NCBI GenBank assembly: GCA_045804645.1
Contig: JBJMMR010000042.1
Coordinates: 18,184 to 82,183, forward strand
From: Chloroflexota bacterium
GTDB lineage: Bacteria; Chloroflexota; Limnocylindria; Limnocylindrales; CSP1-4
Length of the DNA: 64,000 nt
Reading direction: 5' to 3'
Shown here: piece after piece, positions 34,266-50,216 of the stretch
Position numbering within the stretch: position 1 is the first letter of the stretch
How the letters are laid out: every line of letters starts with the position of its first letter
Made by a program: the position numbers and the translations under genes
Notes under the pieces: model-generated
What the model was told of the DNA's origin: nothing
The model's input: only the letters and a program-made list of their open reading frames with translations
Database searches by the model: none

Positions 34266-35203
34266 CACGGAGCGGCGCCGGGACGCCGGACGGCGCCGTG
34301 ACAACGCCCGTACCACACGTCTCGTCTCGCGCCGACATCGACGCAGCGCTCAGCGCCCTGGTCGCGGCTCCGCCGCCACTCCTGCTCGTCATCGATTTCG
34401 ACGGCACGCTCGCGGTCGGGTCACGTGACCCTGCCCTCGCCCGCATCGAGCCGCTCGCCCAGCGCGCTCTGCGACGCCTCGCTGGCCATGCGACCCGACG
34501 GCCGGACCGCCTCGTCCTCGCGGTACTCACCGGACGCCTCGTCGCGGACGTGGCGACGCGGGTCCGGGTCGGTGGTATCGAATACCTGGGCGACCACGGT
34601 CTCGAGCACGGGCGCCTGCCGCGCGGTGGGCGTGCGGAACGGCTGGTCGTCACGACCGACCCCACGTTCGATGTCCACCGCGACACGGCGGAGACGCTCG
34701 CGACGGCCGTCGCCGCGCAGCTCGGCGCGCCACCCTGGCTGTTCGTCGAACGCAAGGGGCCGTCCGTGGCGTTCCACGTGCGCCAGGCCGAGGACATCCC
34801 GGCAGCGCGTGCCGCCGTCGTCGAAACGATCGACGCCGTCGAGCGGCGCCTCGGTCTCGGACATGGGCTCGCGCATTACCGGGGTCGGTCGGTCGTCGAT
34901 CTCCGTCCGAAGGACGCCGGTGGCAAGCGCGAGGCGGTCGAGGAGTTGGTCGCGCGTGACCGGCCTGGCGGCGTCGCGGTGCTCGGCGATGAGATGAGCG
35001 ATATCGACGCCTTCGAGGCCGTCCTCGCTGCACGGACGGCCGGCGAGATCGTCGGCGTGACCGTCGCGGTCCACGGGAGCCGATCTGCGCCGACGGAGCT
35101 GCTCGCGCTCGCCGATCTCCAGCTCCGTGGGGCACACGAGGTGGGTCGCTGGCTGGTCGGCCTCGCGCGGCGTCTCGAGGCAGAGGGGGCGCGAGGTCCC
35201 TAG
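34262..35203 (+). CDS. otsB: Trehalose-6-phosphate phosphatase (HAD-IIB)
   Basis: 313 aa, GTG start; HAD motif I LLLVIDFDGTL, motif II, …GDEMSDIDAF (motif IV DD); overall OtsB-like. Confidence 0.75.
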   Translation: MTRSGAGTPDGAVTTPVPHVSSRADIDAALSALVAAPPPLLLVIDFDGTLAVGSRDPALARIEPLAQRALRRLAGHATRRPDRLVLAVLTGRLVADVATRVRVGGIEYLGDHGLEHGRLPRGGRAERLVVTTDPTFDVHRDTAETLATAVAAQLGAPPWLFVERKGPSVAFHVRQAEDIPAARAAVVETIDAVERRLGLGHGLAHYRGRSVVDLRPKDAGGKREAVEELVARDRPGGVAVLGDEMSDIDAFEAVLAARTAGEIVGVTVAVHGSRSAPTELLALADLQLRGAHEVGRWLVGLARRLEAEGARGP

Positions 35204-36696
35204 CCTGGGAGCGCGGAGATGGCTGCCGCGGCGCCTTCGGCGACCTGCAGCAGGGGCGTGGGCACCAGCCCGAACAGGATCGTGAGCGCCGTCGCGGCGG
35301 CCAGGCCACCCCATAGCAGCGCTCCGTGGCTCAGCGGAGGTGCGTCACTCTCCGGGTCGCGCATGTACATGTAGACGGCGACCCTGAGGTAGTAGAACGC
35401 GGCCAGCGCGGCGTTGAGGACCACGATCACGGCAAGGACGGTCAGCCACCCGCCGGCCTCGACCGCTGCGAGGATGACGTACGCCTTCGCCCAGAAGCCG
35501 GCGAGCGGCGGGATGCCGGTCAATGACAGGAGGAACAACAGCATCAGCGCCCCGAGCAGCGGTTCGCGCCGGCCGAGCCCCGAGAACGTGGCGAGCCCGG
35601 ACGTGACACCCGTCCGTTTCTGGAGCGCCGCGACCACCGCGAATGCGCCGAGGTTCATGAACGTGTACGCGGCGCCATAGAACAGCAGTCCCTGGAGACC
35701 GAGCAGCTGCCCCCCGGCGTACGCCGCGAGCCCGACGAGCATGTAGCCCGTGTGGGCGATCGAGCTGTACGCCAGCATCCGCTTGACGTTGTCCTGGGTC
35801 AGCGCGACGAGGTTCCCGACGGTCATCGTGAGCGCGGCGAGGATCATCACGACCGGCAACCACCATTCCGCGAGGGGCCCGAGCGCCTCGACGAACAGCC
35901 GGAGGATCAGCGCGAACGCGCCCACCTTCGGGCCGACTGACAGGTAGCCCGTGATGGGCGTCGGCGAGCCCTGGTACGCGTCCGGCGTCCAGTAGTGGAA
36001 CGGGACGGCCGCGATCTTGAACGCGACGCCCGTCGTCAGGAATGCGAGCCCGATCGCCAGACTCGCTTGGAGCGGCGCCTCGCCGGCGACGATCTGGCCG
36101 AGGATCTGGGTGACGCCCGGCCGCGATGGGTCGTCGCTGCTGATCAGCGTCGTCCCGGTGATGCCCCACACGAAGGCCAGCCCGAACAGGAAGATCGCCG
36201 AGCTGAACGAACCGAGGAGGAAGTACTTGATCGCCCCCTCGGTCGAGTAGGCGTCGGTCTTGTGGTAGCCGGCAAGCAGATAGCCCGGCAGCACCATCAG
36301 CTCGAGGCCGAGGAACAGCAGCAGCAGGTCGGCGGCACCGGCGATGAGCATCGCTCCGGTCATCGCGAAGATCAGCACGATCGCGAACTCGGCGATCGGC
36401 AGGCCGCGCGGCAGGAGGTAATCGGGGGCGAACACGATCGTCATCGCGACGATCGTGATGAACAGGACGTCGAGGAACGTCGTCAGCGCGTCGACCTTGT
36501 ACGAGCCGTTGAACGCTGTCGATGTCTCCGCTCCGACCTGGATCGTCACGAAGGCGGTGATGGCCAGGCCGATGAGTGCGGTCCCGATCGCCGGCCCGTC
36601 GCGACCGGGCCAGACGAGGTCGACGAGCAGCACTGCCGCTGCCGTGAGGACGGCCGCGATGAGCGGTGCGATCGTGACGAGATCGGCGAATGCCAC
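35200..36696 (-). CDS. nuoN: NADH-quinone oxidoreductase subunit N
   Basis: 498 aa antiporter-like subunit; …LLGSFSSAIFLFGLAFVWG…FKIAAVPFHYWTPDAYQGSPTP…; last gene of nuo operon. Confidence 0.9.
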   Translation of the reverse strand: MAFADLVTIAPLIAAVLTAAAVLLVDLVWPGRDGPAIGTALIGLAITAFVTIQVGAETSTAFNGSYKVDALTTFLDVLFITIVAMTIVFAPDYLLPRGLPIAEFAIVLIFAMTGAMLIAGAADLLLLFLGLELMVLPGYLLAGYHKTDAYSTEGAIKYFLLGSFSSAIFLFGLAFVWGITGTTLISSDDPSRPGVTQILGQIVAGEAPLQASLAIGLAFLTTGVAFKIAAVPFHYWTPDAYQGSPTPITGYLSVGPKVGAFALILRLFVEALGPLAEWWLPVVMILAALTMTVGNLVALTQDNVKRMLAYSSIAHTGYMLVGLAAYAGGQLLGLQGLLFYGAAYTFMNLGAFAVVAALQKRTGVTSGLATFSGLGRREPLLGALMLLFLLSLTGIPPLAGFWAKAYVILAAVEAGGWLTVLAVIVVLNAALAAFYYLRVAVYMYMRDPESDAPPLSHGALLWGGLAAATALTILFGLVPTPLLQVAEGAAAAISALPG

Positions 36697-38351
36697 TACG
36701 CCCCTCCGCCCTGTGGGACGACCGCTGTCTCGCGCCGCCGCCCGAGCGCCACGGCCACCGTCCGAGCGACGACCAGGAGCATGATCAGCGCGAGCCCGAT
36801 CACGACGACGATCGGATCCACCGGGATCGCCTGACCGGTGCGCGCCGAGACGAGGAACTCGTCGACGGAGCCCTGGATGAGGTCCAGCAGCAGGCCTGGT
36901 CGGACGCCGAACACGACGATAAGCGTCGCGAGCGGCACCAGCGTCAGGACTTCGATCGGCGTCATATCGGTCAGGTGGCCACCGAGGTTCTCGAGGAAGT
37001 CCGAGACCTCGCCGAAGACGACCCGCTGGTACATGAACAGCAGGTACCCCGCAGCTAGGATCATCGCGAACGCGGCGACCGCGGCCGCGGCGGGGCTCAC
37101 CAGGAACGTCCCGACCATACTCAGGAACTCACCCACGAACCCCGAAAGACCGGGCAACCCGGCCGACGCGAACACGAAGAAGCCGAAGGTCGCCGCCCAA
37201 ACGGGCAACCGGCCGGCGAGGCCTCCCATCTTGGCGATGGTCCGGTCATGCGTCCGCTCGTAGATCACCCCGACGAGCAGGAACAGGCCGCCCGTGATCA
37301 GGCCGTGGTTGATCATCTGCAGGATCGCACCCTGGACGCCCTGCTCGGTGAACACGAATGCTCCGAGCGTGACGAACCCCATATGGCTCACCGACGAATA
37401 CGCCACGAGCCGTTTGAGGTCGGGCTGGACGAGCGCGACGATGGCGCCGTAGATGATCGCGATGAGCGAGAGCACGATGATCGTCGGGGCGAAGGTCGCA
37501 GCAGCGTCGGGGAAGAGCGGGATCGCGAACCGCAGGAACCCGTACGCGCCGAGCTTGAGCAGGATCCCTGCGAGGATCACGGAGCCGGCGGTCGGGGCGT
37601 CGGTGTGCGCGTCGGGTAGCCAGGTGTGGAAGGGGAACATCGGGACCTTGATCGCGAAGGCGAGGAAGAACGCGAGGAAGGCACCGACCTGGAGCGCCGG
37701 CGCGAACCCCGAGCTCGCGGCGAAGTCGCGGAGCGTCACGAAGTCGAACGCGTTCGCCCACGACCCGGTGGCCGCCTGGTAGGCGAAGGCGGTCGCGAGG
37801 ATCGCCACCAGCATGAGCAGCGAGCCGACCAGCGTGTAGAGGACGAACTTGATCGTCGAGTAGATCCGGTTCGCGCCGCCCCAGATCCCGATGATCAGAT
37901 ACATCGGGACGAGGACCACCTCGAAGAAGATGTAGAAGAGGAAGAGGTCCAGCGCGAGGAAGACACCGATCATGCCGACCTCGAGCACGAGGAAGGTGAT
38001 CATGTATTCCTTGATCCGGGTCTGGATCGGGACCCACGAGGCGAGGATGCAGATCCAGGTCAACGTCGTGGTCAGCACGACCAATGCTGCCGACAGACCA
38101 TCGATGCCGAGCTTGTACTGGATCCCGAACACCGGGATCCAGTCGTATGCCTCGACGAAATCGAACTGGTTGCCCGCCGAACCCGCGTAGCCGATGAGCA
38201 TCAGCAGCGATGCCACCCACGTCGCGAGGGCGAACGCGAGCGCGGTCGGACGGGTCCACGAGGTCGGCAGGATCGCGACGACGAGCGCGCCGACCAACGG
38301 CAGGAACGTCACGATCGTGAGGATGCCGATCGGCAGCCCGTCGAGGGTCAT
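36696..38351 (-). CDS. nuoM: NADH-quinone oxidoreductase subunit M
   Basis: Start trimmed to MTLDGLPIGILTIVTFLPLVGALV… (the 791-aa ORF is a GC 5' extension overlapping nuoL); …FKVPMFPFHTWLPDAHTDAPTAGSVILAG…. Confidence 0.9.
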   Translation of the reverse strand: MTLDGLPIGILTIVTFLPLVGALVVAILPTSWTRPTALAFALATWVASLLMLIGYAGSAGNQFDFVEAYDWIPVFGIQYKLGIDGLSAALVVLTTTLTWICILASWVPIQTRIKEYMITFLVLEVGMIGVFLALDLFLFYIFFEVVLVPMYLIIGIWGGANRIYSTIKFVLYTLVGSLLMLVAILATAFAYQAATGSWANAFDFVTLRDFAASSGFAPALQVGAFLAFFLAFAIKVPMFPFHTWLPDAHTDAPTAGSVILAGILLKLGAYGFLRFAIPLFPDAAATFAPTIIVLSLIAIIYGAIVALVQPDLKRLVAYSSVSHMGFVTLGAFVFTEQGVQGAILQMINHGLITGGLFLLVGVIYERTHDRTIAKMGGLAGRLPVWAATFGFFVFASAGLPGLSGFVGEFLSMVGTFLVSPAAAAVAAFAMILAAGYLLFMYQRVVFGEVSDFLENLGGHLTDMTPIEVLTLVPLATLIVVFGVRPGLLLDLIQGSVDEFLVSARTGQAIPVDPIVVVIGLALIMLLVVARTVAVALGRRRETAVVPQGGGA

Positions 38352-40339
38352 CCCTGATTCCCCACGAGCAACAGGTACGAGCCCGCCATCACGATCAGCC
38401 CGATGGCGATCCCAAGTGCGTAGTTCTGGACGCGGCCGGTCTGGACGCGCCTGATGTTGCGGCCGGCGGTGACCGTCGAGCTGCCGATGCCATTCACCGT
38501 CCCGTCGATGACTTCGCGGTCGAACCACCACATCGCGTTCGCCAACCGGCCGCCGATGACGATGAACAGGAGGTGGTTGAGCTCGTCGAACCACCACTTG
38601 TTGAGGGAGGCCCGGTACAGGAACGACAGCCCCGGTCGCGCACTGATCTCGCGGACCGCCTCGGGTCGCGCTGGCAGGTGCAGGCCCGCGATGTCCGTCC
38701 CGAATAGCCGCCAGGCGATGACGACTCCGACCGCGGCGACCGCGACGCTCGCCCCGATCAGTGCACCGTCGATCCCGAACAGCTGGTACTCCGCCTCGGT
38801 GTGATGGAGCATCTCGACGGCCGGCTGGAAGACCGGCTCGAGCCACTGCGAGATGACGTTGGCGCCGAGCGGCAACCCGAGCGCGAGACCGAGCAGGGCG
38901 GATGGGATCGCGAGCAGGATGAGTGGCGTCGTCATCACGGGCGGCGACTCGTGGATCCTGTCCCAGAGCTCCTTCGGACCCCGGAACGAGCCCCAGAACG
39001 TCAGCCCCATCAACCGGAACATGTAGAACGCGGTGAGCAGGGCGACGAACAGGCCGATCGCCCAGATCCATGGGAATCCAAGCTTGAACGCTTCGCCGAG
39101 GATCTCATCCTTCGAGAAGAAACCGGCCAATGGCGGGATGCCAGAGATCGCGATCGAGCCGATGAGCATCGTGATGTAGGTGATCCCGATCTTCTTCGAG
39201 AGGCCACCCATCCGGCGCATGTCCTGCTCCTCATGGACGGCGTGGATCACCGAGCCCGAGCCGAGGAACAGCAGACCCTTGAAGAAGCCATGGGTCATGA
39301 GGTGGAAGATCGCCGCAGTGAACGCCCCGACGCCGAGCGCCGCGAACATGTAGCCGAGCTGCGACAGCGTCGAGTACGCGAGGACGCGCTTGATGTCGGT
39401 CTGGGTCATCGCGATCGATGCGGCGAGGATGGCCGTGAAGATGCCGATCGAGGCGACGACGACCATGGTCGACGGGGCGGAGGCGAACAGTGGATTCGCG
39501 CGGGCGACGAGGTACACGCCGGCGTTCACCATCGTGGCGGCATGGATCAGCGCCGAGACCGGGGTGGGGCCCTCCATCGCGTCGGGTAGCCAGACGTGCA
39601 GCGGGAACTGGGCACTCTTGCCCATCGCGCCGGCGAAGACGAGCAGGGCCACGATCGGGACGGGGATCGGGAACGCGACGAGCGTCGGCGACAACAGCGT
39701 GTCGAGGGACTGGCGGATGTCGAGCGTCCCGGTGTTCAGGAAGATCGCCATGATGCCGAGCGCGAACCCGACGTCACCCACGCGGTTGACGATGAACGCC
39801 TTCTTCGCCGCGAGGGCCGCCGAGCGCTTGCGATACCAGAAGCCGATCAGCAGGTAGCTCGACAGGCCGACGAGTTCCCACGCCACGAAGACGACGAGCC
39901 ACGAGTCCGCGAGGACCAGCAGCAGCATCGAGAACATGAACAGGTTGAGGTAGGCGAAGAACCGCCAGTATCCCGGGTCGTGACCCATGTACCCGATCGA
40001 GTAGATGTGGACCAGCAGGCCGATCGTCGTGACGACGATCAGGAGGCAGGCGGTCAGCGGGTCGACGAACAGCCCCAGGTTCACCTGGAAGCCGCCGGCT
40101 GGGATCCATGTCCACGGCCCGACCACGTAGCCGTGTAGCTCCTCGGAACCCTCGATGAGCGGCGCGGCCCCGGTCAGCACGTTGAAGACCGCGACCATCG
40201 CGATGACCCAGGCGATGAAGATGACCGCGACCGGTACCCAGTGCGCCTGCTTGCCGAGGCGTCGCCCGACGAGCGCCGTGAACAGGAATCCGGCTATCGG
40301 CAGGATCAGAAGGAGTGGCAGCAACGACGCCATGTCCAT
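38348..40339 (-). CDS. nuoL: NADH-quinone oxidoreductase subunit L
   Basis: 663 aa; …QFPLHVWLPDAMEGPTPVSALIHAATMV… and long C-terminal extension typical of NuoL. Confidence 0.9.
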   Translation of the reverse strand: MDMASLLPLLLILPIAGFLFTALVGRRLGKQAHWVPVAVIFIAWVIAMVAVFNVLTGAAPLIEGSEELHGYVVGPWTWIPAGGFQVNLGLFVDPLTACLLIVVTTIGLLVHIYSIGYMGHDPGYWRFFAYLNLFMFSMLLLVLADSWLVVFVAWELVGLSSYLLIGFWYRKRSAALAAKKAFIVNRVGDVGFALGIMAIFLNTGTLDIRQSLDTLLSPTLVAFPIPVPIVALLVFAGAMGKSAQFPLHVWLPDAMEGPTPVSALIHAATMVNAGVYLVARANPLFASAPSTMVVVASIGIFTAILAASIAMTQTDIKRVLAYSTLSQLGYMFAALGVGAFTAAIFHLMTHGFFKGLLFLGSGSVIHAVHEEQDMRRMGGLSKKIGITYITMLIGSIAISGIPPLAGFFSKDEILGEAFKLGFPWIWAIGLFVALLTAFYMFRLMGLTFWGSFRGPKELWDRIHESPPVMTTPLILLAIPSALLGLALGLPLGANVISQWLEPVFQPAVEMLHHTEAEYQLFGIDGALIGASVAVAAVGVVIAWRLFGTDIAGLHLPARPEAVREISARPGLSFLYRASLNKWWFDELNHLLFIVIGGRLANAMWWFDREVIDGTVNGIGSSTVTAGRNIRRVQTGRVQNYALGIAIGLIVMAGSYLLLVGNQG

Positions 40340-40342
40340 CGC

Positions 40343-40660
40343 CTACTGACGCATCGCGTCGTACTCATCCACAAGAGGCGTCTTCTTGTTGCGGTAGATG
40401 GCGATGACGATCGCGAGGCCGACGGTCGCCTCCGCTGCTGCGACAGCCATGACCATCAGCGCGAAGACGGAACCCTGCGCGACGGAATCAGCGCGCGGCC
40501 CGAACAGTCCGAACGCGACGATCGTGAGGTTGACGGCGTTGAGCATGAGCTCGATCGACATCAGCATGCTGATCGCGTTCCGGCGCGCCAGGAAGCCGAA
40601 CGAGCCGATGGCGAAGAGGATCCCCGACATGATCAGATACGTGTCGAGGCTGTCGCTCAC
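40343..40660 (-). CDS. nuoK: NADH-quinone oxidoreductase subunit K
   Basis: 105 aa, three TM; …[19 protein letters not shown]…[17 protein letters not shown]…. Confidence 0.9.
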
Positions 40661-41250
40661 GAGGGCCCGCCCGGTTCACGCTTCGCGAGGAAGACGCCCC
40701 CGATCACCGCGGCGAGCAGCAACACGCTCACGATCTCGAATGGGAACAGGAACTGCTGGAAGAGGATCCTCGACATGATCTCGGTGCCGAGGCGCGCCCC
40801 GCGCTCGACCTGACCCCAGTCGGTCGCGCTGACCGCGAGCGCGATCACGATCGCGACGACGATCGCGGCGATCGATGCAGGCCCGGCCTGGGTCTGGAAG
40901 ACCAGCCGCGTCGGCGCGTCCTTGGTCTGGGTGAGCATGATGGCGAACAGGATCAGCACGCTGATCGCGCCGATGTAGACGATGACCTGCGCGGCACCCA
41001 ACAACGGGACGCCCATCAGGACGTAGATCCCCGCGAGGGCCATGAAGCACACGACCATCGCCAGCCCGCAGCGGATGATGTCGCGCATCGTCACGACGAG
41101 CAGGCCCGAGCCGATCATCAGCGCGGCGAGCAGCCACAGCAGCACGTCGTCCCAGTCCTGGTGGAGGACGACGAGCATGAGGCCGGCGATCCCGAGGACG
41201 GCGCCCATGACGAGCAGCGCGAAGATGATCTGGGGGAGCTTCGCGAGCAC
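40657..41250 (-). CDS. nuoJ: NADH-quinone oxidoreductase subunit J
   Basis: 197 aa; …[22 protein letters not shown]… NuoJ pattern; overlaps nuoK start by 4 nt. Confidence 0.85.
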
Positions 41251-41252
41251 GA

Positions 41253-43892
41253 CTACTCGTGCTGACCCGGGCCGAGGGCGGCGACCGCCTCGTGCCCGTC
41301 ATGCCCGTGGCCGTTGCCGTTCGTGCGAGCGCTCGGAGCGATCCCTGTGAGCGTCGGGGGGAGGACCGGGAGCATCCGTGCCGGGTCATAGACGCGGCCC
41401 TCGATCTGCGCTCGCTCCAGCCAGTCGCGTTCGCGCCGGACGTACGTGACCTCGGTCTCCTTGTCGATCGCCGACAGCGCCATGAGGTCGATCATCGGCT
41501 CGGAGCGCCCGGTGTGGGAGAGCTCGAATTCGGTGCTGTCGCGGAGCGCGTCGTAGGGGCACGCGTCGACGCAGATCCCGCACAGGATGCAGCGGCTCTC
41601 GTCGACCTCGTACTTCTCGAGGACGCGCGGCTTCGGCATCAGGGCGCCGGTGGGACACGTCTCTGCACAGCGACCGCACGACACGCATGGGGTGTCGTTC
41701 AGGCTCATGTCGAGCGGCGTCGTCACGAGCGTGTCGAAGCCGATTCGCATGAAGTCGTAGCACGCCGCGCCGACGATCTCGGCGCAGACGTTGGCGCAGC
41801 GGCCGCAGTCGATGCAGCGCGATGGCTCGCGCAGGATGAACGCGTGCGAGTCGTCGCGGATGTAGTCGTGGTTGATGCCGGTGAACCGGTTCTCGGTGAT
41901 CGAGCGGTAGCCCGCGCCCTGGTGGTTGTCCGGCTCGAGCGTCTTGAGCGTCGTCCCGTACTCGATCCCCAGCCGGCGGAGGTCGCAGAAACCGATCGCC
42001 TCGCAGGTGCATTGGAGGCAGCGGGTCGACTCTGCCATCGCCTCCTCGCGGGTGTACGGCAGCTCGTACTCGATGTAGCTGTCGTTGCGCTGCTCGGCGG
42101 GGAGCGGCTTCAACCGGTAGCGCGGCTCCTTGATCTCGCCGGTGAACGGCACGATCGAGAGGAACTCGGGCTGCGGCTCGGCGAGGGTCTGACGCGTACG
42201 GATCGCGTCGAGGTCCATCCCCTTGAGGTAGGCATCGACCGCGTACGCCGCTCGGCGGCCCTCGGCGATCGCCTCGACGACGGTCGCGGCACCGATGCGC
42301 ACGTCGCCGCTGCCGAAGACACCCGCTCGGCCCGTGGAGAAGGTCACGGCGTCGGCCTTGAGCCGCCGGTTCTTGCTCGCCTCGACGCCCTCGTTACCCG
42401 GTTCGCTCGCCCAGCCGAGCTCGGGGCCCTGGCCGATCGCCAGGAGCACGCGGTCGCACGGGATCGTGAATTCCGTCCCGGGCGCTGGCTCCGGTCGGCG
42501 GCGACCTGATGCATCAGGCTCCCCGAGCTGCATCCGGATGAACTCGACGCCGGTCACGTTGCCGCCATCGTCGGTGATGACCCGCACCGGCCCGGCCTGG
42601 AAGATGGCGGTGACGCCTTCCTCGATCGCCTCGTGGACCTCGTCGGACGCCGGCATGTCCTTCATGTCCCGGCGGTAGACGAGCGTCACCTCGCTCGCGC
42701 CCTGACGGATGGACGTCCGCGAGCAGTCCATCGAGGTGAAGCCACCGCCGATGACGACGACCCGCTTGCCCGCGTGGTTCGGGTAGGGCAGGCCAAGGGT
42801 CGCGGTGCGCAGGTACTCGAGGCCGTCGAGCACCTCGGCCGCGTCCTCACCCGGGATCCCCAGCTTGTTCGTGTCGTAGCAGCCGATGGCGATGAGGACG
42901 GAGTCGAAGCCCTGGTTCGTCAGGTCGTCGAGCGTGAAATCACGCCCGAGTCCGGCGTCGGTGACGATCCGTGCCCCCAGCCGGGTGACCGACTCGTACT
43001 CGGCCTCGAGCACTTCCACCTTCGGGAGGCGGTATTGCGGGATGCCGTAGCGGAGCATGCCGCCGGGCGAGGGATCACGCTCGAAGACGGTGACCTCGTG
43101 ACCGGCGAGGAGCAGGTAGTACGCCGCCGCCATGCCGGCGGGCCCCGACCCGATGACGGCCGCACGCCGCCCCGACGTCGCCTGCTGCTCGAACGGGACC
43201 GGCGGATCGACATGCTCGTCGAGCATCGCGCGCAGGACCTGGTCGCCCGCGTAGCGGTGCGAGTCGCGGATCGCGATCGCCTCGTCGACCTCGTCGCGGC
43301 GGCAGTGCTCCTCGCACGGCGCCGGGCACACCCGCCCCAGCACGGACGGGAACGGGATCGTTCGCTTGAAGATCCGCGCGCTCTCGCGCCAGTTCGCCTC
43401 GGCGTTGGCCTTGAGGAAGCCAGGGATATCGATGTGACTCGGGCACTTGTTCTGGCAGGGCGGCAGGCAGTAGGCGTTGTGGTCCGAGAAGATCAGCTCG
43501 AGGTTGGTGCGCCGCAGCCGGCGGACCTCCTCGGTCTGCGTCTGGACCTTCATCCCGTCCTCGCACGAACGTGAGCACGAGATCGGCGGATGCTCCTCGC
43601 CCTCGACCTCGACGACGCACATCCGGCACGCGCCGAAACCCGGCAACTTCGGTTCGTAGCAGAGGGTCGGGATCTCGATCCCGTTGTCGCGACAGACCTC
43701 GAGGATCGTCTGGCCCTCGAAGCCCTCGACGACGCGACCGTCGACCTCGATGCGGATGCGCGGCGTCGACTGCGGTCGCTGCGGCGCCTGGGTATCGAGG
43801 AGCCGGTCGGCGAGGGCGTCACGCGTCGTCGCCGGGGTCGATGCCTCGGTCTCGGCGGCGCGCGGCTCGGGGCGTGCGAGGGTGTCGGTCAT
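41253..43892 (-). CDS. Composite Fe-S flavoprotein (879 aa): NuoG N-terminal [2Fe-2S]+[4Fe-4S] region with an inserted GltD-like FAD/NAD(P)H oxidoreductase domain, NuoG N4-cluster region, plus appended NuoI-like 2x[4Fe-4S] ferredoxin domain; no molybdopterin domain
   Basis: IRIEVDGRVVEGFEGQTILEVCRDNGIEIPTLCYEPKLPGFGACRMCVVEV… (NuoG N1b 2Fe-2S); LIFSDHNAYCLPPCQNKCPSH (His-ligated N5-type); VCPAPCEEHC + AAVIGSGPAGMAAAYYLLLAGHEVTVFERDPSPGGMLRYGIPQYRLPK + GKRVVVIGGGFTSMDC (glutamate-synthase small-subunit/GltD fold); NRFTGINHDY…CIDCGRCANVC (NuoG N4-like); CVSCGRCAETCP and CILCGICVDACP (NuoI/TYKY-like pair); His-rich tail. Confidence 0.7.
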   Translation of the reverse strand: MTDTLARPEPRAAETEASTPATTRDALADRLLDTQAPQRPQSTPRIRIEVDGRVVEGFEGQTILEVCRDNGIEIPTLCYEPKLPGFGACRMCVVEVEGEEHPPISCSRSCEDGMKVQTQTEEVRRLRRTNLELIFSDHNAYCLPPCQNKCPSHIDIPGFLKANAEANWRESARIFKRTIPFPSVLGRVCPAPCEEHCRRDEVDEAIAIRDSHRYAGDQVLRAMLDEHVDPPVPFEQQATSGRRAAVIGSGPAGMAAAYYLLLAGHEVTVFERDPSPGGMLRYGIPQYRLPKVEVLEAEYESVTRLGARIVTDAGLGRDFTLDDLTNQGFDSVLIAIGCYDTNKLGIPGEDAAEVLDGLEYLRTATLGLPYPNHAGKRVVVIGGGFTSMDCSRTSIRQGASEVTLVYRRDMKDMPASDEVHEAIEEGVTAIFQAGPVRVITDDGGNVTGVEFIRMQLGEPDASGRRRPEPAPGTEFTIPCDRVLLAIGQGPELGWASEPGNEGVEASKNRRLKADAVTFSTGRAGVFGSGDVRIGAATVVEAIAEGRRAAYAVDAYLKGMDLDAIRTRQTLAEPQPEFLSIVPFTGEIKEPRYRLKPLPAEQRNDSYIEYELPYTREEAMAESTRCLQCTCEAIGFCDLRRLGIEYGTTLKTLEPDNHQGAGYRSITENRFTGINHDYIRDDSHAFILREPSRCIDCGRCANVCAEIVGAACYDFMRIGFDTLVTTPLDMSLNDTPCVSCGRCAETCPTGALMPKPRVLEKYEVDESRCILCGICVDACPYDALRDSTEFELSHTGRSEPMIDLMALSAIDKETEVTYVRRERDWLERAQIEGRVYDPARMLPVLPPTLTGIAPSARTNGNGHGHDGHEAVAALGPGQHE

Positions 43893-45184
43893 CAGGATCC
43901 CGTGGCGGCGGCCGTGGTCGGCCGGCTATCAGGGTCGAAGGAGGAAGCGAAGTATCGCATCCCGCTGGTCAGCGGGAGGGTCGCAAGACGCTCGTGGTCG
44001 CATAGCGCGGAGGCGACGATGTCGTGTGCGAGATCCGTCGCGAGTCGCGCGTCCGCGGGCCGCAGGAGGCCGGCCTCGCGCCGCGCCACGATCTCGGCGA
44101 TGCGGCGCGTGCCGATCCGGCACGGGATCGACTTGCCGCACGCCTCGTTCGAGCAGAAGCGGGTGAGGACGCCGACGAGCTCGAGAAGATCGGTCCGATC
44201 ATCGACGACGACGATCGAGCCGGAACCGAGGTGGCCGCCGGCGTCGCGCAGCCCGTCGAAGTCGTACGGTGTCTCGAGGGCGTCGGGGGGCAGCAAGCCG
44301 CCCGACGGTCCGCCGACGAGCACCGCCTGCAGTGAGCGGCCCTCGGGCAGCCGGCCGCCGAGCTTGAGGACCTCGCGCAGTGGCGTCCCTAGCGGGACCT
44401 CCGCGACGCCGTCCTTGCCGGGGGTGCGCACCTGGACGAGGACCGTGCCAGGCGCCCGGGTGGAGCCCGTCGCGCGGAAGGCCTCGGAACCCTCGCGGAT
44501 GATCCACGGGACCGCGGCAAGGGTCTGGACGTTGTTGACGACAGTCGGCCGGTCGAAGAGACCGGTCTCCGCGGGGTGCGGCGGCCGCTGATCCGGCTGG
44601 CCGCGCTTCCCCTCGAGCGCTTTCAGCAGGACGGTCTCCTCGCCCAGCATGTAGGCACCCTGAACGGGCCGGACCGACATCGACAGTTCCATGCCGGACC
44701 CGAAGACGTCGTCACCGAGGTAGCCAGCGTCCATCGCGTTACCGATGGCGGCCGATAGCGTCGCGATGAGCTCGGTATCCTCGCCGCGCACGGCGATGAA
44801 CGATTCGCGTGCCCCGATCGCGCTGGCCGCGATGGCCGTGCCTTCCACCACCGCGTACGGATCGCGCATCATCAACGTCCGGTCGGTGTGCGACGCGGGA
44901 TCGGCGCCGTAGCCGTTCGCGACGACGTACCGCTGGTCGGCGTCTGTGCTCGCGGCCATGCGCCACTTGTCAGCCGTCGGGTAGCCCGCACCGCCACGGC
45001 CGCGCAGGCCGGATGCGGCGACCGCTGCGATCGTCCCGGCGCCCCCCAGCTCGCGGAAGGCCCGCTCGAGAGCGCTGAAGGCACCGTCGGCGACGGCAGC
45101 ATCGAGGTCCGTCGGGTCCTTGGCATCAGCGCGTGCAAGGAGGATGCGCGGCCACGCAGCCGGCGTCTTCAGGATCGTCACCAT
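43892..45184 (-). CDS. nuoF: NADH-quinone oxidoreductase subunit F (51-kDa, FMN/NADH-binding)
   Basis: 430 aa; GLRGRGGAGYPTADKW (NuoF FMN/NADH motif), …GYGADPASHTDRTLMMRDPY…, C-terminal 4Fe-4S N3 Cys motif …CGKSIPCRIGT…. Confidence 0.9.
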   Translation of the reverse strand: MVTILKTPAAWPRILLARADAKDPTDLDAAVADGAFSALERAFRELGGAGTIAAVAASGLRGRGGAGYPTADKWRMAASTDADQRYVVANGYGADPASHTDRTLMMRDPYAVVEGTAIAASAIGARESFIAVRGEDTELIATLSAAIGNAMDAGYLGDDVFGSGMELSMSVRPVQGAYMLGEETVLLKALEGKRGQPDQRPPHPAETGLFDRPTVVNNVQTLAAVPWIIREGSEAFRATGSTRAPGTVLVQVRTPGKDGVAEVPLGTPLREVLKLGGRLPEGRSLQAVLVGGPSGGLLPPDALETPYDFDGLRDAGGHLGSGSIVVVDDRTDLLELVGVLTRFCSNEACGKSIPCRIGTRRIAEIVARREAGLLRPADARLATDLAHDIVASALCDHERLATLPLTSGMRYFASSFDPDSRPTTAAATGS

Positions 45185-45185
45185 G

Positions 45186-45863
45186 TCAGGCCTGCGCGGA
45201 GGCGCCGGCGCGACGGCCTCCCTCGAGGGCGGTGCCGAGTGCGGCGAGGTATGCGGTCTCGGCCGGGCGGTGACGATCGACGGCGGCGACCTGGTCGGTC
45301 GCTGTCGGCGGCTCGAAACGAAGATGACCGTAGTAGCTCGCGGTCCCGTAGATGATCGCGTACCAGGCGCCGGTCCGGTGACTGATGCGCTTCAGCGCTG
45401 CGACCGGGAGGTAGCCATACGCGTCTTGCGTGGCTTCCAGGATCGGCAGCATGTCGGCGGGATCGAAGTCGTGCTCCTCGAGGATCCGGTCGACCTCGCC
45501 CAGGTCGATCGGCTCGTACGGCCGGAACGCGGGGTCCGGCACGGTGCGCCCTGACCGCCGCACCGCGGACTCTTCGCGCCGCTCACCGTAGGTCTCCGGT
45601 GGGCCCCAGTGGACGTGATAGCGGCCGCGCGTGTCGATGCCACCCATGTCGATGCATTCGATCGGGCACGCCTGGGCGCACTGGAAGCACGTCTCGCACT
45701 TGAGCGTGCCCCACTCGTCGTACAACAGCTGGAGTCGGCCGCGGAACTTGCCGGCGACGTCGGCTCGCTGTTCGGGGTACTTGATGGTCGCCTTCGGCTC
45801 GAAGAAGCGTCGAAGCGTAAGGGCCATGCCCTTCGCGATGCCGAGGCCAGGGACGAAGCTCAT
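45186..45863 (-). CDS. Fusion protein: degenerate NuoI (single CxxCxxCxxxCP motif) + NuoE N-terminal helical domain lacking the [2Fe-2S] thioredoxin-like part
   Basis: N-terminal 1-90 aligns to NuoI up to the first cluster motif CETCFQCAQACP, with no second motif in any frame. Residues ~125-190 (DLGEVDRILEEHDFDPADMLPILEATQDAYGYLPVAALKRISHRTGAWYAIIYGTASYYGHLRFEPP) align to the NuoE N-terminal domain. No Cys in the C-terminal 130 aa. Flanked tightly by nuoH and nuoF. Confidence 0.65.
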   Translation of the reverse strand: MSFVPGLGIAKGMALTLRRFFEPKATIKYPEQRADVAGKFRGRLQLLYDEWGTLKCETCFQCAQACPIECIDMGGIDTRGRYHVHWGPPETYGERREESAVRRSGRTVPDPAFRPYEPIDLGEVDRILEEHDFDPADMLPILEATQDAYGYLPVAALKRISHRTGAWYAIIYGTASYYGHLRFEPPTATDQVAAVDRHRPAETAYLAALGTALEGGRRAGASAQA

Positions 45864-45867
45864 CCGA

Positions 45868-47214
45868 TCACCGGCCGATCACGACGATCGCGGCCGCGGT
45901 CACGAACAGATTCAACAGCGACGCCGGTAGGAGCCATTTCCAGGCGAAGCCCATCAGCTGGTCGATCCGCACGCGCGGCAGCGTGCCGCGCATCCACACG
46001 AACGTGAACACGAGGACGTACGTCTTGAGCATGAACCAGAGGATACCGGCGACCCAGTTCAGCCCGATGTACGCCCATGCGAGCGCGATCGTGACGATGA
46101 ACAGGTTGGCCAGCGCGAAGCCGATCAGGAGCGCCTGCCACCACTTGATGCGCGAGCTCAGCAGCCAGAAGGGCGCGGCGAACAACAGCGTCAGGACCAC
46201 CGGAGCCAGCCCGATGATGAACAGCAGTCCGATGTTGAACGAGGCCGGGTCGAGGCTCAGCTGGACCTGCCAGGCTTCCGGGAACGCGAACGGGGCGTTC
46301 CAGCCGCCGAGGAAGAGCGTCACGAACAACGCCGATACGATGAAGACGTTCACGTACTCGGCGAAGAAGAAGAAGCCGAACCGCATCCCGGAGTACTCCG
46401 TCGCGAACCCGGCCACGATCTCGGAGTCCGCCTCCGTCAGGTCGAAGGGCGTGCGGTTCGCTTCGGCGGTCGCCGCGATGAAGAAGATCAGCGCGCCGAG
46501 CGGCTGTTGGAAGATGTACCAGTCGGTGAACCAGCCCTGCTGGTTCTCGACGATCTGATTGAGGCTCATCGTCCCGGCGAGCAAAAGCAGTCCGACGACG
46601 GACAGCGTGAGCGGGATCTCGTAGCTCACGATCTGAGCGGCGGCGCGCAGCCCGCCGAGCAACGAGTACTTGTTGTAGCTCGACCAGCCGGCCATCAGGA
46701 GCCCGACCACACCGAGCCCGCTGACCGCGAAGAAGTAGAGCAGCCCGATGTTGAGGTCGGCGCCGTAGAGGCCCGGCGCGAACGGGATGACGAGCAGCGT
46801 CATCACGCTGGCGAGATAGACGACGACGGGCGCCCACGTGAAGACCACAGAGTCGGCGCCGGTCGGCGTGAAGTCCTCCTTCATGAGGACCTTCAGTCCG
46901 TGGACCACGGACAGCAGCGACCCGAACGGCCCGACGCGGTCCGGCCCGATCCGAAGATTCATCAGGGCGATGATCTTCATCTCCATGTAGATGATCAGGA
47001 ATGCGGTCGGGACCGTGATCAGCAGGATGACCGTGGCGGCCACCACGAACCGGACGATCGGCAGGTTCGCAGCGAGGGTGTCGATCGCGAGCTGCCCGAA
47101 CGCCGTGATCAGGATGATCAGCGCTGCGATCCCGACGACCAGCAGCGGCACGAGGATGAACAGGAACTTCCCGGGCAGGGTCAGCCGGTTCCAGCCGCGC
47201 GAGACGACCGTCAT
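45868..47214 (-). CDS. nuoH: NADH-quinone oxidoreductase subunit H
   Basis: 448 aa; …GWSSYNKYSLLGGLRAAAQIVSYEIPL… and …RTPFDLTEADSEIVAGFATEYSG… NuoH signatures; N-terminal ~50-aa extension relative to typical NuoH. Confidence 0.9.
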   Translation of the reverse strand: MTVVSRGWNRLTLPGKFLFILVPLLVVGIAALIILITAFGQLAIDTLAANLPIVRFVVAATVILLITVPTAFLIIYMEMKIIALMNLRIGPDRVGPFGSLLSVVHGLKVLMKEDFTPTGADSVVFTWAPVVVYLASVMTLLVIPFAPGLYGADLNIGLLYFFAVSGLGVVGLLMAGWSSYNKYSLLGGLRAAAQIVSYEIPLTLSVVGLLLLAGTMSLNQIVENQQGWFTDWYIFQQPLGALIFFIAATAEANRTPFDLTEADSEIVAGFATEYSGMRFGFFFFAEYVNVFIVSALFVTLFLGGWNAPFAFPEAWQVQLSLDPASFNIGLLFIIGLAPVVLTLLFAAPFWLLSSRIKWWQALLIGFALANLFIVTIALAWAYIGLNWVAGILWFMLKTYVLVFTFVWMRGTLPRVRIDQLMGFAWKWLLPASLLNLFVTAAAIVVIGR

Positions 47215-47245
47215 CGCGAACGACCTCGCGCACTGCGCCTATGGG

Positions 47246-48520
47246 TCACTTATCTACCCCGCCCATGATCGGATCGAGCGAGGCCATGATTGCCATGGTG
47301 TCGGCGACGAGATGCCCCGGCATCATCAGCCCGACCGACTCCAGATGCAGGAACGACGGGTCGTGGATCCGCATCCGGAACGGCTGGTCCGTTCCGTCAC
47401 TGATCGCGTAGACCGCGTACTGCCCTCGTGGCGCCTCGATGCCCGCGTAGGCGCGACCCGGACGCGGCCGAAGCAGCCGCGGCAGCTTCGCCATCACCGG
47501 GCCGTCGGGCATCTGGTGCAGGCACTGGTCGATGATGCGCAGGCTCTGCTTGATCTCGTCCATCCGCAGGAGGTAACGGGCGAGGCAGTCACCCTCCTGG
47601 CGCGTCGGGATGTCGAAATCGAGCTCCGGGTAGATGCTGTAGGGGTGTGCGCGACGCATGTCGAACGGCACCCCGGTCGCCCGGAGGTTCGGTCCGCTCA
47701 TCGTCATCCGTAGCGCCGTCTTCGAGTCGATCCTGCCAAGACCGCGCATCCGGCGGACGAAGATCTCGTTCTCGTTGAGCAGCGTGTTGCCGGCCTCGAT
47801 CTGCTCGGTCGCGTGGCTCATCCAGTCGCCGAGGCGGCTCATGAACTCGTGGTTCAGATCGCCGTTCACCCCGCCGATGCGGAAGTAGTTGAAGAGCATC
47901 CGCTGGCCGGTGAGCGAGGCGAGCATCTCGACGATCGTGTCGCGCTCGATGAACGACCACAGGATCGGCGTGAGACCCCCGAGGTCGAGGGCCATCCAGC
48001 CGAGGAACAGCGAATGGCTCGCGATCCGGTTCAGCTCCGCGGAGAGCACCCGGATGTATTCAGCGCGTCGCGGGACCTGGACGTCGAGCAGCTTCTCGAA
48101 CGCCATGACGCCGGGCCACTCGCAGAACAGTGCGCTGACGTACTCGAGCGGGTCGAGATAGGCGATCGAGTGGTGGTAGTCGGCGTTCTCGCAGAGCTTC
48201 TCGACGCCGCGATGCAGATACCCCAGCACGGGGTCCAGGTCGACGACCTTCTCACCGTCGAGCTTGAGGACGACGCGGAGCACGCCGTGCGTCGACGGGT
48301 GTTGCGGACCCATGTTGAGGAACATCTCGCCGTCTCGCAGCGTGTAGAACTCCGCCTCGCGCTCGGTTCGCGGCGGATACGGAGGCACCGGTTCGAACAC
48401 GCCCAGCTCGCGGTCGAGCTGGACGCGGGGGTCGTCGGGCGCGCCCGCGAAGGCGTCGTCGCCCAGGCTGCTCGTGCGCTGACTACCGGCGGCGTCGGGG
48501 CGGGGAGTGGTAGCGGTCAT
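47246..48520 (-). CDS. nuoD: NADH-quinone oxidoreductase subunit D (49-kDa)
   Basis: Start trimmed to MTATTPRPDAAG… (track ORF 5' extension overlaps nuoC); …LNMGPQHPSTHGVLRVVLKLDGE…ASLDPIMGGVDK. Confidence 0.9.
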   Translation of the reverse strand: MTATTPRPDAAGSQRTSSLGDDAFAGAPDDPRVQLDRELGVFEPVPPYPPRTEREAEFYTLRDGEMFLNMGPQHPSTHGVLRVVLKLDGEKVVDLDPVLGYLHRGVEKLCENADYHHSIAYLDPLEYVSALFCEWPGVMAFEKLLDVQVPRRAEYIRVLSAELNRIASHSLFLGWMALDLGGLTPILWSFIERDTIVEMLASLTGQRMLFNYFRIGGVNGDLNHEFMSRLGDWMSHATEQIEAGNTLLNENEIFVRRMRGLGRIDSKTALRMTMSGPNLRATGVPFDMRRAHPYSIYPELDFDIPTRQEGDCLARYLLRMDEIKQSLRIIDQCLHQMPDGPVMAKLPRLLRPRPGRAYAGIEAPRGQYAVYAISDGTDQPFRMRIHDPSFLHLESVGLMMPGHLVADTMAIMASLDPIMGGVDK

Positions 48521-48539
48521 CGGCGTTCCTTCGGCCGGC

Positions 48540-49094
48540 TCACGTACCGGGACTGATCCGGCGGACCTTGCCGGTCGCGACGGTCTCACGTGGCGCGTGG
48601 GTCTGCTCCATGTGGCGGACGCCCGCACCCGGGGACCGGGCGGCGTCGTCGGCGAGGTAGAAGTCCTTGCGGAGCGGGAAGCTCTGATAGTCCGGCGGCA
48701 TGTAGATGCGCCGCAGGTCTCGGTTGCCTTCGAACGTGATCCCGAACATGTCGTAGGCTTCGCGCTCCATCCACTCGGCGCCCTTCCACATGAAGGTGAC
48801 CGACGGGACACGCGGGTCCTCGCGGGACAGGCCGTCGACGATGACGCGCAGCCAGTCCGGTGTCGTCGGGCTCCAGAGGTGGTACACGACCTGCATCACC
48901 TCGCCCGTATCGACGCCGCATAGATCGGCGAGGAACTCGAACGCGAACTCGGGTTCGTCGTGGAGCGCCGTGATCACCGGGACGACGTCACCGGCGCTGA
49001 TGCGCACCTCGGTCTCGTCATGGCGCTGCCGGACCGGGCCGGTCAGCTGGTCGCCGAAGCGCCGCTCGAGGCGGGCCTTGAACGATCGGTCCAT
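48540..49094 (-). CDS. nuoC: NADH-quinone oxidoreductase subunit C (30-kDa)
   Basis: 184 aa; …EREAYDMFGITFEGNRDLRRIYMPPDYQSFPLRKDF… NuoC signature. Confidence 0.9.
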   Translation of the reverse strand: MDRSFKARLERRFGDQLTGPVRQRHDETEVRISAGDVVPVITALHDEPEFAFEFLADLCGVDTGEVMQVVYHLWSPTTPDWLRVIVDGLSREDPRVPSVTFMWKGAEWMEREAYDMFGITFEGNRDLRRIYMPPDYQSFPLRKDFYLADDAARSPGAGVRHMEQTHAPRETVATGKVRRISPGT

Positions 49095-49095
49095 G

Positions 49096-49860
49096 TCAGA
49101 TCTGCGCGGGGACCGTCGGGCCGATCGGTCGCTCCGGCCAATGGCCGCGGCGATCCTTGACCAGCTGCTGGAGCTTCATCATCCCGAAGATGAGCCCCTC
49201 GGGACGGGGCGGGCAGCCGGGCACGTAGACATCGACCGGCATCACGCGGTCGATCCCCTCGACCGTGGAGTAGCTCCGCTTGTAGCGGCCGCCCGAGCAC
49301 GTGCAATCGCCCATCGCGACGCACCACTTCGGCTCCGGCATCTGCTCCCAGAGGCGGACGAGGGGTCCTGCCATCTTCGTCGTGAGCGTCCCCGCGACGA
49401 TTAGGACGTCGGCCTGGCGCGGGCTGGCGCGGAACGGGAACATGCCCCAGCGATCCATGTCGTTGCGGGACGTCGCGGCCGACATCATCTCGATCGCACA
49501 GCACGCGAGGCCCGACAGTAGCGGCCACAGGCTGTTCATACGGATGAGGTCGAGGACGTAGTCCGCCTTGGTCGGGATGACCTCGAGCGGACCGCTCCAG
49601 CGGGCGTTGTCGCGGCGCCCCGCACCGCTCGCCTCGAACTCGGCGAGGTGGGTGATGGTCGTGGGCTGACCACCCTCATAGGCCATCGGATCCACCGATC
49701 GCCAGAGCGTATTCGGGACGACGATCGGCGCCATGACCTCGTCGCCCGGTCGCGTCGCCGGCAAAGCCGGCTGCGCCGGCACATCGGACGGTATCTCGGT
49801 GGCGTCCGACGGTCCCGCTCCCAACCCGTCGGGGTTGGCGCGGTCCTCATTCACCGCCAT
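49096..49860 (-). CDS. nuoB: NADH-quinone oxidoreductase subunit B (20-kDa, N2 cluster)
   Basis: …[16 protein letters not shown]…[12 protein letters not shown]…[11 protein letters not shown] (four Cys of N2); start assigned to MAVNED (10-nt overlap with nuoA), alternative MAPIVVPN at ~49734; the 294-aa ORF start is an artefactual extension. Confidence 0.85.
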
Positions 49861-50216
49861 GTCAGGGCTCCCTTCCGCCACGCATACGCGAGGCCGAGCA
49901 ACAGGATCAGGACGAACACGACCATGCTGATGAACAGCCCGGCCGGGTTCAGATTGGGGTCTTTGAACACGATGGCCCACAGGTAGATGAAGATCACCTC
50001 GATGTCGAACGCGACGAAGAGCAGCGCGTAGATATAGAAGGACAGGCCGAATCGCCCATGGGTGTCGCCGTAGGTGTCGATACCGGACTCGTAGGGCAGG
50101 CCCTTGTGGACGTCACCCTTGTTCCGATGGGAGACGAGCCAGGCCGCCCCGATCGTAAGGAACACGAACGACACGCCGGCGAAGGCGAAGCCCACGACGT
50201 ACCAGAGCTGTTCCAA
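49851..50216 (-). CDS. nuoA: NADH-quinone oxidoreductase subunit A
   Basis: 121 aa, three TM; …[40 protein letters not shown]… NuoA signature; first gene of operon. Confidence 0.9.

Follow-up and report, generated by a model that had tools for sequence, protein, structure and literature searches.

A complex I operon of Limnocylindria with NuoI split around a putative Nfn/Stn-type electron-input module

The 64,000-nucleotide (nt) stretch analyzed here (contig JBJMMR010000042.1 of the Chloroflexota assembly GCA_045804645.1, positions 18,184-82,183; G+C content about 69%) is referred to as the window, and coordinates are given within it unless a locus from another genome is named. It contains a complex I (nuo) operon of thirteen consecutive, tightly packed genes, which lie on the minus strand at 35200-50216 in the order A-B-C-D-H-[I'E']-F'-[G']-J-K-L-M-N. 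Profiling of all thirteen proteins against Pfam and NCBIfam identified ten of the genes as those for NuoA, B, C, D, H, J, K, L, M and N, while the remaining three, I'E', F' and G', are composite (protein lengths are in amino acids, aa):

49851-50216, minus strand: nuoA, 121 aa (PF00507, E = 7e-30)
49096-49860, minus strand: nuoB, 254 aa (PF01058, E = 6e-27)
48540-49094, minus strand: nuoC, 184 aa (PF00329, E = 4e-39)
47246-48520, minus strand: nuoD, 424 aa (PF00346, E = 2e-85; best NCBIfam model NuoD NF008974, E = 2e-134)
45868-47214, minus strand: nuoH, 448 aa (PF00146, E = 6e-107)
45186-45863, minus strand: I'E', 225 aa (N-terminal half of NuoI, a bridge and the E' part)
43892-45184, minus strand: F', 430 aa (PF01512, E = 1e-39; PF10589, E = 1e-15)
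41253-43892, minus strand: G', 879 aa (NuoG-type N-terminus, GltD insertion, ferredoxin domain, C-terminal half of NuoI)
40657-41250, minus strand: nuoJ, 197 aa (PF00499, E = 3e-31)
40343-40660, minus strand: nuoK, 105 aa (PF00420, E = 4e-26)
38348-40339, minus strand: nuoL, 663 aa (PF00361, PF00662, PF01010)
36696-38351, minus strand: nuoM, 551 aa (PF00361, E = 4e-75)
35200-36696, minus strand: nuoN, 498 aa (PF00361, E = 1e-66)

The order had been proposed in a preliminary description of the window and is real, with profile hits on all thirteen genes. The same description gave the gene junctions as 1-4-nt overlaps, which is only roughly right: ten of the twelve lie between -10 and +4 nt (A>B -10, or -4 with a GTG start; B>C +1; H>I'E' +4; I'E'>F' +1; F'>G' -1; G'>J +2; J>K -4; K>L +3; L>M -4; M>N -1), but C>D (+19 nt) and D>H (+31 nt) are wider. 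The tight junctions bear out its view of one compact gene unit. A scan of the operon for promoters and terminators returned no promoter-like site and five terminator-like sites against 4.2 expected, a chance level that is uninformative on operon boundaries. No further nuo-like gene and no other NuoI, E, F or G was detected in the window by tblastn with its own Nuo proteins and with NuoI/E/F/G from other loci; within the window, nuoE, nuoG and nuoI indeed have no stand-alone copies, as had been stated.

When I'E' was used as a query, about 2,900 relatives were found in a protein collection, and a scan of one genome per species gave 287 loci encoding I'E', the best 80 of which were analyzed further. 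Almost all of these 80 come from Chloroflexota metagenome-assembled genomes (MAGs) labelled Limnocylindria or Limnocylindrales. Wherever one of these loci is long enough, tblastn gives the order A-B-C-D-H-IE-F-G-J-K-L-M-N; because the same order is found in loci from different species-representative genomes, mis-assembly of the contig across 41-46 kb is excluded. Across these loci I'E' is 72-96% identical, and of the input proteins G' is the most conserved (84-90%) and F' the least (61-85%). Near-identical orthologues also occur in bins labelled Patescibacteria, Verrucomicrobiae, Polarisedimenticolia, Dormiibacterota, Eisenbacteria and Anaerolineaceae. As these orthologues are 72-94% identical to the Limnocylindria proteins, the labels probably reflect mis-binning or imprecise naming and not a truly wider distribution.

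The eleven core subunits A, B, C, D, H, I, J, K, L, M and N are all encoded by the operon, NuoI only as two complementary halves. Its N-terminal half opens I'E', and its C-terminal half lies near the end of G':

45639-45863, minus strand: N-terminal half of NuoI, residues 1-75 of I'E' (TIGR01971)
45516-45638, minus strand: bridge, residues 76-116 of I'E', conserved (mean identity 0.82 in 80 orthologues) and without a family match
45186-45515, minus strand: E', residues 117-225 of I'E' (partial PF01257)
41457-41636, minus strand: C-terminal half of NuoI, residues 753-812 of G' (TIGR01971, tblastn)

Residues 12-75 of I'E' match positions 1-63 of the 121-position NuoI model TIGR01971 (E = 7e-13), and residues 756-801 of G' match its positions 71-116. 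The I' half, which is 46% identical to residues 14-78 of a canonical NuoI and has a mean identity of 0.88 across the 80 orthologues, carries one CxxCxxCxxxCP motif (C56, C59, C62 and C66; residues 56-67). The other motif is found in G' (C768, C771, C774 and C778-P; residues 768-779), where it is followed by an EFEL segment. A single canonical NuoI query gave two tblastn matches 4 kb apart, with its residues 13-78 at the start of I'E' and its residues 61-143 at 41460-41687. No single polypeptide of about 160-200 aa carries both motifs, as a single-chain NuoI would. Since the two stretches of the profile are divided between I'E' and G', and one query hits both sites, NuoI is split and not lost, with E', F' and most of G' encoded between the two parts. 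This also explains the position of nuoH ahead of the N-module genes, which had been noted correctly in the preliminary description, because an eleven-subunit core of the order ABCDHIJKLMN holds the input genes inside nuoI. The closest canonical NuoI to the I' half (locus L092) is encoded in an A-B-CD-H-I-J-K-L operon, and such a layout is what one would expect of the ancestor had the module been inserted into nuoI.

There are four CxxCxxCxxxC motifs for exactly four clusters, and two of the motifs belong to a StnC-like ferredoxin domain in G'. We considered the G' motifs CVSCGRCAETCP and CILCGICVDACP as a complete NuoI-like domain by themselves, which a BLAST alignment would permit, and rejected this because the first of them pairs with CIDCGRCANVC in the ferredoxin domain of the StnC/FeFe-hydrogenase type. 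The motif of I' is consequently the sole remaining partner for the last motif of G'. In a NuoI-type dicluster domain each [4Fe-4S] cluster is ligated by three cysteines of one motif and one of the other, so that the two halves must assemble across two polypeptides if clusters equivalent to N6a and N6b are to form. Such an assembly is predicted here from the logic of the sequence.

The remainder of G' comprises the following segments:

43515-43760, minus strand: [2Fe-2S] domain of the NuoG/HydA type, residues 45-126, with conserved cysteines (PF13510, E = 2e-21)
42213-43514, minus strand: GltD/NfnL-like insertion, residues 127-560 (PF14691, E = 3e-17; PF07992, E = 9e-30)
41637-42212, minus strand: linker, second half of the His-cluster motif and ferredoxin-like 2x[4Fe-4S] domain, residues 561-752 (PF22117; TIGR02512 over 686-761)
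41253-41456, minus strand: tail, residues 813-879, poorly conserved (mean identity 0.57), its end rich in His and Gly

The family origin of E', F' and G' was assessed by comparison with the sequences of all solved structures. Residues 46-779 of G' align with residues 4-700 of NfnA (9bov_A, E = 1e-162), and also with StnC (8oh5_C, E = 9e-144) and archaeal NfnA (9N5U). The insertion, which aligns with NfnA and StnC, features two [4Fe-4S] sites, a flavin adenine dinucleotide (FAD) site and a site for reduced nicotinamide adenine dinucleotide phosphate (NADPH) with a Y-R-R motif, which we take to be typical of NADPH binding. It is followed by C630-x5-C636-DLR and by the ferredoxin-like 2x[4Fe-4S] domain with C693..C703 and C736..C746; in this segment, whose mean identity is 0.97, the alignment with StnC/NfnA runs to residue 700. 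Across 57 orthologues the G' domains are 86-97% identical (the insertion 86-94% on average), and the [2Fe-2S] cysteines, the GltD-type cysteines, the FAD fingerprint, Y-R-R and all three C-terminal cysteine motifs are near-invariant. The same is true of H138/C142 and C630-x5-C636, which together make up a His-cluster motif interrupted by the insertion. G' thus has the domain order of an Nfn/Stn A subunit: [2Fe-2S], a His-cluster motif interrupted by a GltD/NfnL-like domain, and 2x[4Fe-4S].

E' and F' are trimmed relative to their relatives. Residues 125-186 of I'E' match only positions 2-63 of the 145-position NuoE-type model PF01257, so that, of a NuoE/BfuC-type protein, only the helical domain at the N-terminus is there and the thioredoxin-like [2Fe-2S] domain is missing. 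All five cysteines of I'E' lie within residues 56-70, with none beyond 70, and the [2Fe-2S] cluster of NuoE therefore cannot be bound. The best solved relatives of E' are NfnC (9bov_C) and StnA (8oh5_A); it matches only BfuC-, StnA-, HydC- and Fdh-gamma-type chains, and no NuoE chain of a complex I is among the matches listed. F' consists of the core of a NuoF/BfuB-type subunit that binds flavin mononucleotide (FMN) and reduced nicotinamide adenine dinucleotide (NADH); of the domains that flank this core in BfuB, it has neither the [2Fe-2S]-like one at the N-terminus nor the 2x[4Fe-4S] one at the C-terminus. Its top matches are NfnB, HydB and StnB, over residues ~104-509 only. The best is NfnB (9bov_B residues 104-509 of 584, E = 8e-92, 312 bits), and true complex I NuoF chains score lower (228-275 bits). 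In a census of 70 orthologues, F' keeps GRGGAG[FY]P..KW and GEET, motifs that we read with the residue roles presumed from published NuoF structures.

Among the core subunits, NuoB retains the cysteines for cluster N2 (CC at 120 and 121, C186 and C216-PP, in the motifs CC..E, GDC and GCPP), and NuoD lacks NiFe-binding cysteines and keeps the motifs GPQHPSTHGVLR and GYLHRG. The roles of these NuoB and NuoD residues, including the His and Tyr motifs of the NuoD quinone site, are taken to be those of the T. thermophilus structure.

An exhaustive search of cluster representatives revealed I'-E fusions that are only 28-50% identical to I'E' of the window. Some belong to Thermoleophilia MAGs, and the loci outside Limnocylindria and Thermoleophilia belong to taxonomically unplaced metagenomic lineages:

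L081, L083 and L084 (Thermoleophilia MAGs): A-B-C-D-H-[I' + full NuoE, 253 aa]-[BfuB-type, 636 aa]-[G', 824 aa]-J-K-L-M-N
L085 (locus span 2076-6023): H-[I'E]-[F + GltD domain, 1048 aa]-[HoxU-like + NuoI C-half, 265 aa]-J-K-L-M-N
L086: A-B-C-D-H-[I'E']-F-G', with the J-N genes not adjacent
L088 and L089: D-H-[I'E]-F-G

In L081, L085 and L086 the NuoI model is likewise broken at positions ~66-71, one part falling in the first protein of the module and the other in the last. The preliminary description had proposed a lineage-specific remodelling of electron input; the remodelling stands, but it is not lineage-specific, given that the split-NuoI layout also occurs in Thermoleophilia and in the unplaced lineages. 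The Thermoleophilia F proteins have canonical motifs, and their 636-aa BfuB-type protein has an N-terminal thioredoxin-like domain, a 51K core and a C-terminal 2x4Fe-4S domain, so that by domain content L081 and L083 contain the full Bfu core (C1 and the extra B-subunit domains). G' of L083 (7034-9511) has Y-W-S where the other lineages have Y-R-R, which may point to a different nucleotide preference at the FAD site. In L085 the GltD-like FAD/NADPH domain is found at the C-terminus of F, and the 265-aa HoxU-like protein of the G type ends in the C-terminal half of NuoI.

A metagenome scan for one divergent I'E group gave 433 loci, most of them from soil. Of the long loci, one reads A-B-C-D-H-IE-F-G, about 19 read B-D-IE-F-G' with unrelated flanks, and five contain only B-IE-F-G'. 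No NuoC or membrane subunits were found within 6-10 kb in L103 (8211-14468), L111 (9422-14427) and about 22 further loci. Such stand-alone clusters could represent either a hydrophilic arm that is encoded apart from its membrane arm or a soluble enzyme ending in an N2-type cluster. Assignment of the related B-D clusters as [NiFe]-hydrogenases was rejected, the NuoD-like protein of L103 having no NiFe cysteines. The F protein of L103 (10674-11948) reads N-A-Y-D-A-D-P, with the same Asp-to-Tyr change as F' of the window, but keeps the canonical CGICVPC. Because this divergent soil group combines the Tyr with an intact CGICVPC, the Tyr change is older than the loss of a cysteine in Limnocylindria.

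The window was also compared with known systems. With canonical complex I (NuoA-N; T. thermophilus Nqo1-14, 4HEA/2FUG) it shares the eleven core functions, the N2 cysteines, the quinone-site motifs of NuoD, an FMN-type F subunit and the NuoG-type [2Fe-2S] N-terminus. Its input genes, however, lie inside nuoI and not between D and H, its NuoI is spread over two polypeptides, and NuoE is represented only by the helical domain, without N1a. Unlike canonical NuoG, G' has a GltD-like FAD/NADPH insertion, lacks the molybdopterin-like or Fdh-like C-domain and ends in half a NuoI. A canonical N-module, with N1a in E and a molybdopterin-like C-domain in G, is thus not what the operon encodes.

The best solved relatives of all three input proteins are instead the NfnABC/Stn enzymes of C. 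saccharolyticus (9BOV), S. ovata (8OH5) and T. sibiricus (9N5U); PMC11829005 confirms 9BOV as C. saccharolyticus Nfn. By these comparisons, E', F' and G' are closest to NfnABC/Stn and are not rearranged NuoEFG. In the published accounts the minimal bifurcation site is B1-FMN-C1 and electrons exit via B3/B4 (PMC11829005, PMC12018979). The architecture of the A subunit is that of the Nfn type, but C1 and the additional cluster or zinc sites B2-B5 of the Bfu core are not found in the window. As C1, the N-terminal domain of the B subunit and the C-terminal B3/B4 domain are missing, the window version would have neither a bifurcation nor a ferredoxin site. It further differs from NfnABC/Stn in that half a NuoI replaces the FdhF-like C-domain of A, the A7 lysine is a histidine, and the module is linked to a membrane complex. 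A lysine ligand of A7/C7 is stated to be conserved in all NfnABC (PMC12018979); because it differs here, the complex I-linked G'-type proteins can be set apart as a subgroup of their own.

A Bfu-type module that feeds a complex I-like proton pump has been predicted before, as the 'Nuo-Bfu' complex I of Geobacter, Deferribacteres, Planctomycetes and Nitrospirae (Schut et al. 2022, PMC9304861). As described there, Nuo-Bfu has fourteen subunits in the canonical A-N order, with BfuABC for NuoEFG, a separate NuoI and an A subunit that is not of the GltD-inserted Nfn type. The window has thirteen genes in the order A-B-C-D-H-[I'E']-F'-[G'I'']-J-K-L-M-N and is thus distinct. Thermoleophilia L081 and L083 would be the Nfn-type, split-NuoI counterpart of Nuo-Bfu, whereas the window version is without the Bfu core features. 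Neither a split NuoI nor an Nfn-type module within a nuo operon was found described in the literature searched, which included parts of Degli Esposti 2015, Spero 2015, Schut 2022 and the Stn/NfnABC structure papers.

The backbone order is shared with the eleven-subunit relatives of complex I (ABCDHIJKLMN operons, cyanobacterial NDH-1 and archaeal Fpo with FpoF), in which the input module varies between lineages. There the donor module is absent or separately encoded and NuoI is intact, whereas the donor of the window is nested in and fused to NuoI. Engineered E. coli complex I with NuoF Glu183 variants reportedly oxidizes NADPH through a changed specificity of the FMN site; the window differs in adding a separate, natural FAD/NADPH site, and its FMN site keeps GEET.

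Together, we consider it probable that the operon encodes a complex I of the eleven-subunit type to which a trimmed, NADPH-dependent flavoprotein input of the NfnABC/Stn (Bfu) family is joined via the split NuoI. A mechanism is proposed in which the first NuoI half, at the N-terminus of I'E' and followed by the bridge and the helical NuoE/BfuC domain, would combine with the second half, which takes the place of the FdhF-like C-domain at the end of G'. The resulting single dicluster domain would sit on NuoB and NuoD and clamp the input module there, and the helical E' domain would hold F', as NuoE and BfuC do. Electrons from NADPH would enter at FAD in the GltD-like G' insertion and be relayed by the two clusters of GltD type to the NuoG-type clusters of G', and those from NADH would pass from FMN in F' through an N3-type cluster to the [2Fe-2S] cluster of G'. 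Once the two routes have merged, electrons would reach quinone by way of the G' 2x[4Fe-4S] domain, the clusters of the split NuoI and then N2 in NuoB, and H, J-K and L-M-N would pump protons. A published account of Stn regards the clusters leading to the FdhF-like C-domain as a remnant without function (PMC10482914); because that domain is replaced by a NuoI half here, we propose that the corresponding branch is the exit towards N2. The Limnocylindria version is inferred to be a non-bifurcating dual-nucleotide oxidoreductase, transferring electrons from NADPH and NADH to quinone, because the E-type subunit is without the C1 [2Fe-2S] cluster and the F-type subunit without the B2-B5 sites. For the window version, domain content likewise argues against a ferredoxin- and NAD-coupled bifurcating oxidation of NADPH.

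Several observations weigh against such a complex. The absence of another nuo operon or of a full-length nuoI holds for the 64-kb window, and either may yet lie elsewhere in these genomes. In G', the position of StnC K170 is occupied by His (IRD[ST]HRY) not only in the window but also in 56 Limnocylindria orthologues and in L081, L083 and L086, and StnC C114 is replaced by isoleucine, so that a second A7/C7-ligating position is changed. The NADEGDPG motif of F' has become NGYGADP in all 70 orthologues, an alteration of the FMN pocket across the lineage, and in the same census Ser or Thr takes the place of the second N3-motif cysteine. F', as the least conserved subunit, may have no normal NADH site. 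The stand-alone B-D-I'E'-F-G' and B-I'E'-F-G' clusters without membrane genes nearby demonstrate that the hydrophilic set is separable. AlphaFold2 monomer models were unusable, with a mean predicted local distance difference test (pLDDT) score of 52 for I'E' (39-sequence alignment; only the E' helices at 121-160 reach 65-86) and of 42 for G' (33 close orthologues).

The changes in F' could reflect a complex I that oxidizes NADPH only, in which the flavin site of G' works and F' is a structural relic or a regulatory nucleotide binder. The low conservation of F' compared with G' is consistent with this, as are the NGYGADP motif and the loss of one N3 cysteine and of the E' cluster. We nevertheless regard it as unlikely, since GRGGAG[FY]P..KW and GEET are strictly kept and most orthologues have a spare cysteine five residues upstream of the lost one, which restores a total of four; moreover, the derived motifs of F' are themselves conserved, which suggests a changed function rather than decay.

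A module that mainly interconverts pyridine nucleotides, either as an FAD-FMN transhydrogenase or in a reverse reduction of NADP+/NAD+ by quinol driven by the proton gradient, would be in keeping with transhydrogenases being its closest solved relatives and with two nucleotide sites on one cluster chain. However, the module lacks the ferredoxin-reducing elements on which the thermodynamic benefit of Nfn/Stn depends, and the fusion to NuoI and the full proton-pumping arm favor coupling to quinone, making this role improbable. We give still less credence to E', F' and G' as a separate, soluble and Nfn-like enzyme whose genes are simply co-transcribed with those of an eleven-subunit complex I of the ferredoxin type. 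Relatives of the hydrophilic genes do occur as clusters of their own with no membrane genes nearby, but even these keep NuoB beside I'E', the junctions in the window are tight, and the only NuoI of the operon is divided between I'E' and G', which would leave the core without N6a/N6b unless both are present. An assembly artefact or a decaying operon, for which no support was found, can be dismissed, as 80 independent genomes, which come from many studies, share the order, the frames are intact and the cofactor motifs are highly conserved.

If the preferred reading of a quinone-linked complex with an Nfn/Stn-type input is correct, NADPH is predicted to enter the quinone pool directly in Limnocylindria, which are represented here by uncultured genomes only and are present in many soil and freshwater metagenomes. 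We tentatively extend this to a joint proposal, in which the split-NuoI operons would stem from a second, independent acquisition of an input module by the eleven-subunit ancestor, with an Nfn/Stn-type module entering nuoI, whereas NuoEFG of canonical complex I was inserted between nuoD and nuoH. The proposal includes a natural complex I that would oxidize NADPH at an FAD site of its own in addition to NADH, and a Thermoleophilia form with the full BfuBC core that would be a proton-pumping, quinone-linked enzyme confurcating or bifurcating among NADPH, NADH and ferredoxin. Canonical NuoEFG serves as the reference for donor docking, and a widespread split-NuoI variant would be an independent docking solution that bears on the modular origin of complex I. 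The full bifurcation-type core in Thermoleophilia and the trimmed one in Limnocylindria form a natural series that could show what electron bifurcation needs. Public annotations of I'E' and G' read 'ferredoxin', 'FAD-dependent oxidoreductase' or 'formate dehydrogenase major subunit'; with such labels, automated reconstructions would score the genomes as lacking NuoE, NuoG and NuoI.

Two core subunits have additional segments. NuoB has an N-terminal extension of about 90 aa, which is of low complexity and rich in Pro, Ala and Asp, its conserved domain starting near residue 93-120; in many orthologues tblastn coverage of NuoB starts only at residue ~30-40. NuoH is extended by about 55 aa at its N-terminus and is interrupted by a hydrophobic insertion of about 78 aa. 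Its alignment with a canonical NuoH (L092) falls into two blocks, the break lying between 46285 and 46050, and tblastn coverage suggests that the insertion is conserved in the Limnocylindria loci.

A possibly associated gene is found 365 nt upstream of nuoA, likewise on the minus strand:

50582-51772, minus strand: methyltransferase of the MidA/NDUFAF7 family, 396 aa (PF02636, E = 1e-48)

This adjacency is seen in 59 Limnocylindria loci. Mitochondrial NDUFAF7 methylates an arginine of the NuoD homologue, and NuoD of the window keeps GYLHRG.

A second copy of I'E' and F' (75% identical), with no nuoH before it, is found at L052 (4971-12078), in the same MAG as locus L023. Upstream of it are genes for a PIG-L deacetylase, a 427-aa protein without a family and an 856-aa protein that combines GltD and ferredoxin parts but has no [2Fe-2S] domain. 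This copy could be a paralogous locus, or could reflect strain mixing in the bin or a chimeric contig.

Elsewhere in the window, dnaA is located at 6037-7419 on the plus strand, and the cumulative GC skew is lowest at about 12-14 kb, increasing from there until about 58 kb. Accordingly, the minus-strand nuo operon of 15 kb would be a lagging-strand unit near the origin, head-on to replication. An open reading frame at 17825-23263 on the plus strand encodes a protein of 1812 aa, the first ~1000 residues of which have no match at E <= 1e-5; only its C-terminal third matches the protein O-mannosyltransferase families PF02366 and PF16192.

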